NCBI GenBank assembly: GCA_036636255.1
Contig: JAVWOV010000002.1
Location: forward strand, 1 to 28,805
Length of the DNA: 28,805 nucleotides
DNA from: Bacilli bacterium
Lineage (GTDB): Bacteria > Bacillota_I > Bacilli_A > RF39 > UBA660
Direction of reading: 5' to 3'
Shown: positions 20,415 through 24,271 of the stretch, in pieces
Layout of the letters: each line of letters opens with the position of its first letter
How positions within the stretch are numbered: position 1 is the stretch's first letter
Position numbers and translations under genes: made by a program
The notes under the pieces: model-generated
What the model was told of the DNA's origin: nothing
The model's database searches: none
Seen by the model: only the letters and a program-made list of their open reading frames with translations

Positions 20415-21233
20415 ATGCCTGAGTTACCGGAAGTTGAGACAGTTAAAGAGACGTTAAAACGAATTATTATTTCTAAAAAAATTATTGATGTTAATGTTTA
20501 CTGTGATAATATTGTTGCTTACCCTAGTAAGGAAATATTTGTTAAAAAGCTTATTGGACAGACCATTAAAGATATTAAACGACGTGGGAAATGGCTTTTA
20601 TTTGAACTTGATGATTATTATTTATTAAGTCATTTGCGTATGGAGGGCAAGTTTAATTGGAAAAAGACAGGTAAGCGTAGTGTTCATGAACATATAATTT
20701 TTGTTTTTGCCGATGGTCAGTTAAGGTATCAAGATACGCGGAAGTTTGGACGCATGCATTTAATTAAAAAAGACGAACTTTATGTGAACAAGCCTTTATC
20801 GTTATTGGGATTAGAACCCTTTGATGAAAAACTTACGGTTGATTATTTAAAACAATGTTATAAAAATAAAAAATTACCGATTAAATCAGTAATTTTGGAT
20901 CAGAGTATTATAGCCGGTATTGGTAATATTTATGCAGATGAGATTCTTTTTTTGAGTGGAATTAATCCATTGTTAAAGGCTTGTTGTTTAAATGATGATT
21001 TATTGGATAGTATTTTAAAAAATACCCGAAAAGTTTTGTCTCGAGCCATTTTAAAAGGGGGGACAACAATTAGAAGCTATAGTTCCAGTGAGGGGGTTCA
21101 TGGCCGTTTTCAGCAAGATTTATTGGTCCATACGAGGGCTGGTCAAAAGTGTGTAATTTGTTTTAGGATAATTATTAAGATTAAGGTTAATGGTCGTGGC
21201 ACTTATTATTGTCCAAATTGTCAAAAATTATAG
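20415..21233 (+). CDS. mutM: Formamidopyrimidine-DNA glycosylase
   Basis: N-terminal PELPEVET, RRGKWL, HLRMEG, DTRKFG, LDQSIIAGIGNIYADEIL, C-terminal C4 Zn finger; ATG 20415 after GGAGGT. Confidence 0.97.
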   Translation: MPELPEVETVKETLKRIIISKKIIDVNVYCDNIVAYPSKEIFVKKLIGQTIKDIKRRGKWLLFELDDYYLLSHLRMEGKFNWKKTGKRSVHEHIIFVFADGQLRYQDTRKFGRMHLIKKDELYVNKPLSLLGLEPFDEKLTVDYLKQCYKNKKLPIKSVILDQSIIAGIGNIYADEILFLSGINPLLKACCLNDDLLDSILKNTRKVLSRAILKGGTTIRSYSSSEGVHGRFQQDLLVHTRAGQKCVICFRIIIKIKVNGRGTYYCPNCQKL

Positions 21234-22353
21234 GGGTGTTTTTATATTCCTTTTCAATTAAATTTTTTTGATCTTTCTTGTTTAAAACTGAGGCATAAAT
21301 AGCCGTTATGCGTAGTTCTAGATCTAATTGTGGTTTATACTTAGTTAAAAGGGGTATTTTAATATCTTTTTTTATGTTTTTTAAGTGTTTTTGTCCGAGG
21401 TTATTAAAACCTAATACGCGTATATATGTTATATGGGTATTTGCTTTAGCTTCTTCTTTGGTGAAATTGCATAGGATGTGAATTAGCATTCTTTTTATTT
21501 TATTATATGTATAGCGTTTTGTTTTTATGGCTTGAATTAGTTCTTCACTGCTATTAACTTTTAGAATGTATTTTTTTATTCTGTTTTCAATTCCTTCATC
21601 TACTGTTTGATATTTACTTAGATCTTTATCGCTTATTATTTTATATTTTATTAAAGAAAAGTAGTTTTCGATTGTTAGGGCTTTTTTTATATATTGACTA
21701 GTTATCTTGGGAATGTAGTTAGTTATATTTTGTTTGTTTTTTAAGGCAATACGGATGCTTGTAGCACTGGTTATATTTGCTTGTAATTTTGTTTCATGAT
21801 AGTTGTTAGTTCTTTTTATACAGATAGGTATTATGTTACTATTGGTGGTTATTATTTCACGTATGTAGCTTATGGCGAGGATGTCGTTGGGGGTGTTTAT
21901 TTCAATATTATTAAAGTGTTTTAGGGCTTTTGATAAGGCGGTGGGGTAGTTGATTCCTTGTTTTAGATATATTTTTACTTTTTCTTGATATTCTTTGGTT
22001 GTTTGAATTTGGGCTAATTGAGTTAGGACAGTTATATTATTTAATTCACTACCAAAAATTATTTTATCTACTTTTAGATGATTTAGTATTGTTATAGCCC
22101 CATGGGCGAATATGTCGGCACTTTGGGTAGAAAAAGTAAATGGTAATTCGATTATTAGGTCTATACCCATTTTTAAGGCTATTTTTGTTTTGTCCCATTT
22201 ATTTATAATGGTTGGTTCGCCTCTTTGTAGGAAACTAGCACTCATGATTAAAATGATTGTATGATTAGGACAAATTTTTTTTACTTCATTTAAGTGATGC
22301 AAGTGTCCGTTATGAAAGGGACTGTATTCACATATTATTCCTACTGTTTTCAT
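21187..22353 (-). CDS. tmcAL: tRNA(Met) cytidine acetate ligase (HIGH-type nucleotidyltransferase, YlbM)
   Basis: GIICEYSPFHNGH, SASFLQRGEP, ELP..FSTQSADIFA, PNDILA, SATSIR, TKRYTYNKIKR; ATG 22353 after GGTGA; divergent from yceD-rpmF as in Bacillus. Confidence 0.9.
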   Translation of the reverse strand: MKTVGIICEYSPFHNGHLHHLNEVKKICPNHTIILIMSASFLQRGEPTIINKWDKTKIALKMGIDLIIELPFTFSTQSADIFAHGAITILNHLKVDKIIFGSELNNITVLTQLAQIQTTKEYQEKVKIYLKQGINYPTALSKALKHFNNIEINTPNDILAISYIREIITTNSNIIPICIKRTNNYHETKLQANITSATSIRIALKNKQNITNYIPKITSQYIKKALTIENYFSLIKYKIISDKDLSKYQTVDEGIENRIKKYILKVNSSEELIQAIKTKRYTYNKIKRMLIHILCNFTKEEAKANTHITYIRVLGFNNLGQKHLKNIKKDIKIPLLTKYKPQLDLELRITAIYASVLNKKDQKNLIEKEYKNTPIIFDNLDNNKCHDH

Positions 22354-22396
22354 TAATATCACCATGTATATAATAACATATTTTTAGTAATAATGC

Positions 22397-22425
22397 TTGA
22401 TATATCTTTGAATTTTAGGTATAAT
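22397..22425 (+). promoter_or_regulatory. Sigma-A promoter of yceD-rpmF
   Basis: TTGATA-17 nt-TATAAT. Confidence 0.75.
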
Positions 22426-22445
22426 ATTAATATTGAGGTGTGTTT

Positions 22446-22889
22446 ATGAATATAAATTTAACGAGGCTTAAGAGTAATATTGATAAAGAAATTGTAATTG
22501 ATGAGGCTTTTTCTTTTGCTTCTGATGTTCTTAAGCAAGTTGATATTATTGATTTATTTGACGGTCATGTGCTTGGTAATATTTTTCATGATTGCTTGGG
22601 GGATATTATTATTAATGTCGAAGTTAGTGGGGTTATGGTTTTACCATGTAGTATTACTTTAGAACCAGTTAATTATCCCTTTTCTTTTAATATTGAGGGT
22701 GATTTAGAACGTATTTGGCAGGAAATCAATGAAAATGATGAAAATTTACAAAATACTATTGATATTTTACCGATAATATGGGAAAATGTATTAATGGAAA
22801 TCCCTATGAAGGTGGTTAGTGAGCATGCTCACGAGGTTACTTTGAAGGGTGATGGTTGGCAATTGATTAATGAAGAAAATGATAATTGA
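22446..22889 (+). CDS. yceD: DUF177/YceD family protein (23S rRNA accumulation, YlbN-like)
   Basis: [34 protein letters not shown]; conserved position before rpmF; ATG 22446 after GAGGTG. Confidence 0.85.
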
Positions 22890-22911
22890 TTATATAGGAA
22901 GAGGTGTTATA

Positions 22912-23121
22912 ATGTTAAAGTTAGATATTCAAAGATTTGCGGTTCCGGCTAGAAAAGTTAGTAAGACTAGGAAAAGAATGCGTCGTACTCATTATAAATT
23001 AAGTGCGACAGCTACTATTGACTGTCCAAAGTGTGGTAGTGGAATTAGAGCACATCGTGTATGTCCAAAGTGTGGTACATATAAGGGTAAAGAAGTTATT
23101 AAAGTAGAAGAAGCAGCATAG
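22912..23121 (+). CDS. rpmF: 50S ribosomal protein L32 with a 9-aa N-terminal extension
   Basis: [18 protein letters not shown]...CPKCG...[12 protein letters not shown] (C4 zinc type); GAGGTG RBS 5 nt before ATG 22912; no start codon directly before the Ala-Val-Pro. Confidence 0.96.
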
Positions 23122-23132
23122 TTGCTTTTTTT
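23111..23132 (+). terminator. Intrinsic terminator after rpmF
   Basis: AAGCAGC/GTTGCTT hairpin with ATA loop followed by a T run. Confidence 0.6.
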
Positions 23133-23185
23133 CTTTACTTGTGTTTTAAAAGAAGTTATAATGTATTTATAAGGATAGGTGTTTT

Positions 23186-23566
23186 ATGAAAAAAAATGGG
23201 TTTACTTTAATTGAAATATTGGGTGTAGTGGTTATTTTATCATTAATTGCACTTTTATCTTTTCCGTCGATTGTGGAAAACGTTAGAAAAACGGAAAATA
23301 AACTGAGTGATGCTTCTATGTTACTAGTAGAAAGCGGTGTTGATATTTATATGGATAATAATAAAGTTGATTTTAAGATGGCAGTTAACGATGTTTATTG
23401 CATTTCTTTTCAAACGCTGTTTGTTAGTGGTAATTTACGAAAACCTTTTATTGATATTAAGACTGGTAAGGAATTGGATGTTAAGAATAAATCAGTTAAG
23501 GTAATTGTGGGAAGTGAAGATAATACATATAATATTGTTGATTCAAATTTATGTATTCCTAGTTAG
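23186..23566 (+). CDS. Type IV pilin / pseudopilin-like protein (prepilin N-terminal cleavage/methylation motif)
   Basis: MKKNG|FTLIEILGVVVILSLIALLSF with Glu at +5; two Cys in the C-terminal half; AGGT RBS. Confidence 0.88.
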   Translation: MKKNGFTLIEILGVVVILSLIALLSFPSIVENVRKTENKLSDASMLLVESGVDIYMDNNKVDFKMAVNDVYCISFQTLFVSGNLRKPFIDIKTGKELDVKNKSVKVIVGSEDNTYNIVDSNLCIPS

Positions 23567-23662: not shown

Positions 23663-24271
23663 TTGGTTAATAAGAACGATGATAATAATTCGCAGGATAT
23701 ATTTTTTGAACCCTTAAAGGTGACTGAACCAATTTTTCGTCCTATGGATGATCAAAATGCGACTTATAAGGTGGATGATAATGATGGATCCGCATTAGAG
23801 CCTATTATGGTTGATGATGATGAGGAAAATATTGTACCAGATAAAATGGTTAATACAGATGATACCCTTAAACAGTTTTCTAATGTTGAACCTGTATATG
23901 AAGATAGTGTTATAAATAATGTTTCTATAAGTGAAGATAGTGGTCTTATAAATAGTAAACCTATTTCACAAACTATATCTGCTGAGCCTAATTTAAGTGA
24001 CAATAGGTTTATTGGGCAAGCAGGAGGATTATCTTTAGAACAACAAGTTTTACCTTCGGATAATGTAAATGATATGTATACAATGGGTGCAGAAGGTCAA
24101 AAGCCTAAATATGGACGGACAGAAGAAGAAATTAAAGCCCAACAGGATGAATTAAATAGTAAAAGTAGTTTAAGATTATTAATTATTATATCTGTTTTTG
24201 TGTTTGCAGTAATAATTTTTTTACCACAGATAGCTAGTATGATTGCCAAGTTAATGTCGATATTTAAATAA
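23663..24271 (+). CDS. Hypothetical acidic protein with a single C-terminal transmembrane helix
   Basis: TTG start after AGGTGA; D/E/N/S/P-rich N-terminal about 165 aa; TM LLIIISVFVFAVIIFLPQI. Confidence 0.75.
   Translation: MVNKNDDNNSQDIFFEPLKVTEPIFRPMDDQNATYKVDDNDGSALEPIMVDDDEENIVPDKMVNTDDTLKQFSNVEPVYEDSVINNVSISEDSGLINSKPISQTISAEPNLSDNRFIGQAGGLSLEQQVLPSDNVNDMYTMGAEGQKPKYGRTEEEIKAQQDELNSKSSLRLLIIISVFVFAVIIFLPQIASMIAKLMSIFK

Follow-up and report, generated by a model that had tools for sequence, protein, structure and literature searches.

In a Bacilli bacterium (assembly GCA_036636255.1), rpmF, the gene of ribosomal protein L32 (bL32), encoded a product in which nine residues, MLKLDIQRF, were placed directly before the canonical L32 N-terminus, and these residues had the form of the propeptide that the protease Prp removes from ribosomal protein L27 in Bacillota. 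The leader was real, selected at the protein level and restricted to one family, and it tracked the leader of the L27 protein encoded in the same genome. It is thus very probable, as judged from sequence comparisons, that L32 joins L27 as a ribosomal protein matured by a Prp cut. Coordinates given below refer to the window, i.e. the whole stretch of 28,805 nt analysed.

Start site of rpmF and the nine-codon leader

Within the sequence read (nt 22200–23400), rpmF started at ATG 22912, located 5 nt downstream of GAGGTG (nt 22901–22906). The start codon (nt 22912–22914) was followed by TTA AAG TTA GAT ATT CAA AGA TTT up to nt 22938 and, from nt 22939, by GCG GTT CCG GCT AGA AAA, which encoded the canonical L32 N-terminus AVPARK, and the gene ended with the stop codon TAG at nt 23119–23121. 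The product was therefore MLKLDIQRF joined to AVPARKVSK..., and the ribosome binding site, start codon and fusion claimed in an earlier note on this DNA agreed with the sequence base for base. The same note had pointed to the TTT preceding the Ala codon; this was seen in the sequence, so that a short form beginning M-AVP cannot be initiated there. The next in-frame Met was residue 23, and a start at that position would lose the conserved basic N-terminal tail. The open frame extended 5′ to ATG 22870, inside the end of yceD, which had no Shine-Dalgarno sequence, and in relatives a stop codon was present immediately 5′ of the leader of 8 to 9 residues.

The protein scored 84.3 bits (cut-off, 21.3) in its match to the Pfam L32 family (Ribosomal_L32p, PF01783), residues 10 to 64 corresponding to positions 1 to 55 of the 56-position profile. 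Cys residues C38, C41, C51 and C54 of the zinc ribbon, as well as A10-V11-P12, were invariant in the L32 alignment (A1), and the basic tail conformed to AVPxRKxSKxRxxxRR. In bL32 the initiator Met usually stands directly before AVP, as the earlier note had held and as was seen in most relatives, whereas nine residues preceded the Ala here. These nine residues, MLKLDIQRF↓A (the arrow marking the predicted cleavage site), had the features of a pro-L27-type propeptide, namely 8 to 12 residues ending in [DNE]-[IL]-Q-x-F and followed by Ala.

The features of the locus are listed in Table 1. YceD (PF02620) was encoded immediately upstream of rpmF, forming the yceD-rpmF gene pair typical of bL32, and its start had the same layout as that of rpmF, with GAGGTG at nt 22435–22440 and a 5-nt spacer before ATG 22446. 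Together with the divergent neighbour matching PF05636, it confirmed that this is the tmcAL/yceD/rpmF locus named in the note. Directly 3′ of rpmF, a gene at nt 23186–23566 (+) encoded a protein of 126 aa whose N-terminus bore a methylation motif of the prepilin type (PF07963), and the next gene, at nt 23663–24271 (+), an acidic protein of 202 aa with a membrane helix at its C-terminal end. In so small a genome there is no obvious reason to expect a gene for a type IV pilin or pseudopilin.

Table 1. Features of the yceD-rpmF region, with positions in the window
Feature	Position (nt)	Strand	Basis
tmcAL-type HIGH nucleotidyltransferase, divergent neighbour	21187..22365	-	Pfam PF05636, 409 bits
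Promoter-like site (TTGATA, 17 nt, TATAAT) 5′ of yceD-rpmF	22397..22425	+	Consensus scan only, 11/12 matches
yceD (DUF177, large-subunit rRNA accumulation protein), partner gene 5′ of rpmF	22446..22889	+	Pfam PF02620, 51 bits
Shine-Dalgarno sequence GAGGTG	22901..22906	+	Sequence; 5 nt before leader ATG
Nine-codon propeptide MLKLDIQRF (P9 to P1), predicted Prp cleavage after Phe9 (TTT, nt 22936–22938)	22912..22938	+	Sequence, comparison, model
Mature bL32 (AVPARKVSK..., zinc ribbon CPKCG...CPKCG) and stop codon TAG	22939..23121	+	PF01783, match from residue 10; alignment A1
Terminator-like hairpin with T run, 3′ of rpmF	23106..23132	+	Consensus scan only

Distribution of the leader

The family was sampled with one genome per genus (200 genera), candidates being fetched and read, and rpmF was matched in 196 of these genomes. 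The leader was present in at least 62 of the 196 rpmF genes, that is, in about a third of the genera, and the pattern was found in 63 fetched genomes. In each of the 64 rpmF genes with a leader that were examined, a Shine-Dalgarno-like element was positioned to serve the leader ATG, and the leader comprised 8 residues (40 genes), 9 residues (23 genes) or 11 residues (one gene). Retention of the leader in relatives had been proposed as a check, and it was borne out: among 30 relatives the leader was observed in both congeners (MKLDIQRF and MLKLDIQRF) and in three other genera of the family, the remainder having M-AVP. Among public protein clusters at 90% identity, about 95 of the best 120 had the leader, and a scan for the junction pattern gave at least 560 confirmed stretches in species-representative genomes, a circular MAG of 1.26 Mb (OZ006994.1) being among the genomes matched.

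All carriers were uncultured metagenome-assembled genomes (MAGs) of gut, rumen or faecal origin, labelled as Bacilli, Tenericutes or Mycoplasmatota bacterium. Some public MAGs with a Bacilli-type rpmF (L210, L213, L218, L226 and others) were titled Muribaculaceae, Paratractidigestivibacter or Ignavibacteriales, and these are probably mislabelled or mixed bins. When 400 genomes of the class were sampled, none of the about 350 from other families had the leader. Fifteen candidates from outside the family, with alignments starting at query residue 3 to 6, were rejected, since all had plain M-AVP or V-AVP starts when fetched.

Two thirds of the family had no leader, indicating that it is dispensable. 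The mature N-terminus AVP[FA]R[KR] was the same in carriers and non-carriers, which appear to differ by a precise indel of 8 to 9 codons; for example, G003 (L023) had ERGVNM-AVP versus ERGVNMMKLDIQLF-AVP in G077 (L072), with the Shine-Dalgarno/ATG context conserved. On a tree of 76 genomes, presence of the leader changed at least 10 times. A variant junction, MKLDIQLF-G-ALPARR, with an extra Gly and with ALP in place of AVP, was seen in G089 (L127).

Selection on the peptide

The leader consensus was K-L-[DNE]-[IL]-Q-x-F↓A, the residues being conserved and the codons variable. Gln occupied P3 in all 63 carriers (62 CAA and one CAG), and Phe occupied P1 in 62 of the 63 (47 TTT and 15 TTC), the codon before Ala being TTA in the remaining gene. 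Leu was found at P6 in 60 of the 63 carriers, specified by four different Leu codons, and Ala at P1′ was encoded by all four Ala codons. In pairwise comparisons, synonymous and nonsynonymous differences numbered 705 versus 62 at P1 and 62 versus 0 at P3. Because synonymous variation occurred at conserved positions, a purely nucleotide-level element is excluded.

When open reading frames of at least 40 aa in all six frames were scanned with a loose motif, [LMFIV][DNEQST][ILV]Q.[FL] followed by A, G or S, only two matches were obtained in the 801-kb source assembly, the one other than rpmF being internal to a junk ORF. A chance origin of the leader was rejected, as the motif hardly occurs elsewhere in the genome.

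Correspondence between the L32 and L27 leaders of the same genome

In all L27 genes read in the family (100 genomes), the extension had the form ...[LF]-[DN]-[IL]-Q-[LRF]-F↓A-H/S-K-K, in agreement with the motif published for Prp, MLxx(D/N)LQ(F/L)F'A(S/H)KK, as exemplified by S. aureus pro-bL27 (MLKLNLQFF↓ASKK) (PMC9405229). In congener G002, the L27 extension ...LLKLDIQRF↓AHKK stood beside the L32 leader MLKLDIQRF↓AVP, and in congener G001 both proteins had IQRF. The resemblance anticipated between the two leaders in leader-bearing relatives was thus found in G001, in G002 and across 60 paired genomes.

In these 60 pairs, P4 was identical (I or L) in 57 genomes against 39.1 expected if unpaired. 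The corresponding numbers were 31 against 23 at P5, 31 against 22.7 at P8 and 34 against 30.2 at P2, and at this last position the L32 leader did not track that of L27 over the 60 pairs. Identity summed over P6 to P1 was 297, compared with a permutation mean of 264.6 (SD 4.7), and this value was reached by 0 of 10000 permutations. A 2x2 Fisher test of the P4 pairing gave p of about 8e-10, a value uncorrected for kinship. On a poorly resolved tree of the mature L27 and L32 sequences (about 140 residues), the P4 state changed at least 8 times in each protein, and a kinship-controlled test of P4 comprised three supported independent pairs, all concordant (sign test p = 0.25), a number of pairs with which such a test is unable to reach significance. 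G207 (L080 for rpmF, L136 for rpmA) was the only genome with Leu at P1, and it had Leu there in both proteins (L32, MMKLDIQML↓AVP; L27, ...LTIQLL↓AHKK), a natural double variant suited to probing Prp specificity.

At shared residues, codon identity between the two leaders was 0.74 within genomes versus 0.72 between genomes, so the match does not reflect recent DNA copying, and gene conversion from rpmA was rejected on this basis. The L32 leaders had a consensus of their own, M/L-K-L-D at P9 to P5, with frequent Met at P2, which was absent from L27.

Prp in the relatives and the gap in the source assembly

Prp (YsxB), a cysteine protease of MEROPS family C108, was present in 30 of the 30 relatives searched. 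A motif GH[AS]...DIVC[AS] adjoined rpmA in 59 of 63 large loci, and alignment of Prp of the relative G002 to S. aureus Prp (4PEO/7KLD) showed that GHA and DIVCA, containing the catalytic His and Cys, were conserved in this relative. The search for rplU-prp-rpmA suggested in the earlier note, when made in relatives, thus located Prp with its His/Cys pair beside rpmA, and the operon was present in both congeners, with one congener's prp at L043:1794-2090 (-).

Searches of the source assembly (801-kb, 80 contigs, 88.5% complete) detected neither Prp (PF04327) nor L27 (PF01016), and tblastn of the rplU-prp-rpmA operon proteins of G001 and G002 against it found none of them, the sole hit being a weak match of one unrelated flanking ORF. 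L27 is essential. For this reason, and since L21 and the flanking genes were missing too and completeness was 88.5%, the absence is read as an unassembled block and not as a true absence. The earlier note had regarded the lack of a Prp homologue as refuting its proposal; in the assembly this lack is formally the case, but it is uninformative because the whole rplU-prp-rpmA block is missing together with its flanks. We infer the Prp of the source organism from its congeners.

Complex prediction with the G002 Prp dimer and L32 residues 1 to 30 gave a score of 0.41, against 0.02 for the best control, and was rated as weak support. In calibration, 55 of 80 solved complexes attained the mark, as did 3 of 110 mismatched pairs. 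Scores up to 0.60 included only 7 of the 80 solved complexes and yet all 5 passing mismatches, and 0.41 falls in a range where, for a guess that was not likely beforehand, most passes are wrong. The confident contacts predicted were between L32 residues 1 to 13 and Prp residues 19 to 22 and 31 to 33, which include the His and the Cys. A solved Prp-peptide adduct exists, and the memory of it in the model may contribute to the score. The prediction is thus consistent with the proposed cut but is no proof of it.

Proposed maturation of pro-bL32

In the proposed pathway, translation from ATG 22912 adds the propeptide MLKLDIQRF ahead of AVPARK, giving pro-bL32, with a propeptide that copies the motif by which Prp of Bacillota recognizes pro-bL27. 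The protease, whose gene lies between rplU and rpmA, would then cut between Phe9 and Ala10, yielding exactly the N-terminus that other bacteria obtain by removal of the initiator Met. That Prp cuts pro-bL32 after Phe9 to give Ala-Val-Pro... is considered likely. Cleavage may be needed before or during 50S assembly. More tentatively, the tag might hold the N-terminal tail of L32 off the rRNA until a late step, as suggested for L27, or might alternatively couple the supply of L32 and L27 to the activity of Prp. On the primed side, L32 had V-P at P2′-P3′ versus H/S-K in L27, and a Pro so close to the bond to be cut might impede the protease.

This V-P following the scissile Ala, unlike the L27 context, would fit a leader that is translated but not removed by Prp, being either retained as an extension or cut by another protease such as an Rrp-like Ntn hydrolase. 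In another species of Bacillota an alternative protease cleaving bL27 is known (bioRxiv 10.64898/2026.08.10.744006), and Prp was not found in the source assembly, which is 88.5% complete. A retained extension would, however, have no need to copy the L27 motif and to keep Gln at P3 and Phe at P1 beside an invariant Ala, nor to follow the L27 leader of the same genome at P4 and P1, and the unchanged mature AVP[FA]R[KR] in carriers and non-carriers also argues against it. As to another protease, the Rrp of S. pneumoniae is encoded on a mobile element confined to particular strains and differs in its specificity. A leader that is retained, or removed without Prp, is accordingly held to be unlikely.

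Two further explanations would leave the peptide without a role. The short yceD-rpmF spacer is a place where a regulatory RNA could reside, and the upstream frame might be a conserved nucleotide element (RNA structure or regulatory leader) lying outside the protein, with translation starting elsewhere. This is extremely improbable, given that no start codon was present at or near Ala10 (TTT/TTC preceded it in 62 of 63 genes), that the Shine-Dalgarno sequence fitted the ATG of the leader in every one of the 64 genes and a start at the next Met would cost the conserved N-terminal tail, and that the excess of synonymous differences at P1 and P3 is a protein-level signature. The patchy presence of the leader, with its many changes on the 76-genome tree, and a gain or loss resembling a precise indel of 8 to 9 codons behind a conserved Shine-Dalgarno/ATG are what might be expected if the tag had no function and were a neutral remnant of recurrent gene conversion with the 5′ end of rpmA as donor. 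Codon identity between the two leaders was, however, no higher within genomes than between them, and L32 leaders kept their own consensus, including Met at P2. Furthermore, a tag that could not be removed from a buried and essential N-terminus would be expected to be selected against, and the persistence of the leader in over 60 genera implies processing, so that a neutral origin appears highly improbable. Processing of pro-bL32 by Prp is therefore the reading preferred here.

Comparison with known systems

The substrates of Prp listed in a 2022 review are L27, gp46 and gp47 of phage 80alpha and a proposed site in FlhB (PMC9405229), and L27 is also the substrate treated in a paper on kinetics and structure (PMC9261936) and in S. 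pneumoniae preprints of 2025 and 2026, in one of which an Rrp-like Ntn hydrolase rescues bL27 processing in strain TIGR4 (bioRxiv 10.64898/2026.08.10.744006). In the literature searched, neither L32 as a Prp substrate nor a propeptide of bacterial L32 was found, in agreement with the statement of the earlier note that it knew of no such description, and the Prp literature searched named L32 only as a tunnel-lining protein.

The closest known systems include pro-bL27 with Prp. In both cases, a protein of the large subunit, with an N-terminal tail that reaches into the core of the rRNA, bears a propeptide of 8 to 12 residues that has a hydrophobic residue at P6, D/N/E at P5, I/L at P4, Q at P3, F at P1 and Ala at P1′; the cut, which for L32 is predicted, regenerates the N-terminus of bacteria without a tag, and relatives encode Prp in rplU-prp-rpmA. 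The differences are that the substrate here is bL32, that the primed side is V-P-[FA]-R versus [HS]-K-K-G in L27, and that the L32 tag occurs only in part of a single uncultured family, against several phyla for the pro-bL27 tag. The scaffold protein gp46 and the major capsid protein gp47 of phage 80alpha, which are cut by host Prp, show that the tag can be carried by unrelated proteins with differing primed-side residues; these phage proteins exploit the host enzyme, whereas here a second ribosomal protein of the host itself is tagged. The Prp site proposed for FlhB of B. subtilis, spirochaetes and Thermotogae (PMC9405229) resembles the present case in that a cellular protein has an N-terminal extension with the L27 motif, with sequence as its support, and differs in that FlhB is a flagellar export protein and not a ribosomal one, no flagellar genes being involved here.

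The earlier note had also drawn a loose parallel to mitochondrial MrpL32 (bL32m), a member of the same family whose precursor loses an N-terminal piece through the m-AAA protease for ribosome assembly (PMC5438985, PMC7595625). The parallel holds as an analogy, but the protease is a different one and the two processes are unrelated: the piece removed from MrpL32 is an import presequence and the enzyme a membrane AAA+ metalloprotease of the FtsH type, so that motif, enzyme and origin have no relation to the L32 tag, which has a Prp motif and not a targeting presequence.

Occurrence of the same tag in toxins and phage proteins

A scan of the proteome for other such leaders had been suggested. No further N-terminal cellular substrate was found in the source genome by the six-frame motif scan; in five relatives scanned at the DNA level, exactly L27 and L32 were matched in three genomes, and the extra matches in the other two were internal or in junk ORFs, with the exception of one toxin in congener G001.

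This toxin, of 428 aa with a C-terminal LHH nuclease domain, was encoded at L303:996-2279 (-), corresponding to G001:C73, and also at L304:4996-6282 (-). A SUKH immunity gene was located 3′ of it at L304:4455-4994 (-), and 5′ of it were two ORFs of roughly 93 aa, one with a weak, sub-threshold match to WXG100, and an FtsK/SpoIIIE ATPase. By its predicted genes, the locus is of a type VII-style polymorphic toxin layout. The contig was of 18.9 kb, and its ends had the low GC content usual for the genome. Within the toxin, ...LMKLDIQRF↓A was found at residues 252 to 260, identical at 9 of 9 positions to the G001 L32 leader plus Ala and encoded by different codons. A homologue with a WHH/colicin-DNase tip (P0124) was 98% identical to the toxin up to that Ala and unrelated beyond it. 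Two others, with trunks 49% identical (P0125) and 44% identical (P0126), had MLKLDIQRF↓A at the same junction and MKLDIQMS↓A, respectively. A search of the representative library with the toxin trunk gave three relatives only. If the trunk/tip junction is a Prp-type site, the toxin domain would be set free by Prp, either that of the producing cell or that of the target cell; a link between Prp and polymorphic toxins was not found in the literature searched.

A scan of IMG/VR with M-K-[LF]-D-I-Q-x-F-A gave 35 sites in 34 viral contigs (L305-L338), the tag being at or near the N-terminus of a gene at 33 of the 35. Ten of the tagged viral genes were compared with PHROGs; nine fell in structural families, namely major tail protein (4), tail protein (2), tape measure, major head protein and head closure, and one in a family of unknown function. 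The tagged virion proteins thus have a wider range than the capsid and scaffold pair of phage 80alpha.

These occurrences suggest that the tag may be a portable Prp module read by a trans-acting factor. It is possible, though rather doubtful, that in this lineage M-K-L-D-I-Q-x-F↓A is a general 'cut here' module for Prp, which would mature bL27 and bL32, lie at trunk/tip junctions of type VII-secreted polymorphic toxins and head many of the tail, tape-measure, connector and capsid proteins of phages, with Prp as a hub protease for host, toxins and phages alike.

Implications

Several Gram-positive pathogens cannot do without Prp, and the enzyme is being explored as a narrow-spectrum antibiotic target, the premise being that its task in the cell is the maturation of a single protein, bL27. 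If pro-bL32 is matured as proposed, a second substrate of diverse sequence, with V-P on the primed side, would become available for mapping the specificity of Prp. For annotation, the 8 to 9 extra residues may be taken by gene callers and curators for a start-site error. The proteolytic checkpoint in 50S assembly would prove to be extendable to a further protein whose N-terminal tail is buried, providing a bacterial counterpart to the long-known processing need of mitochondrial bL32, and the occurrence of carriers and non-carriers within one family would constitute a natural experiment on the purpose of the propeptide.
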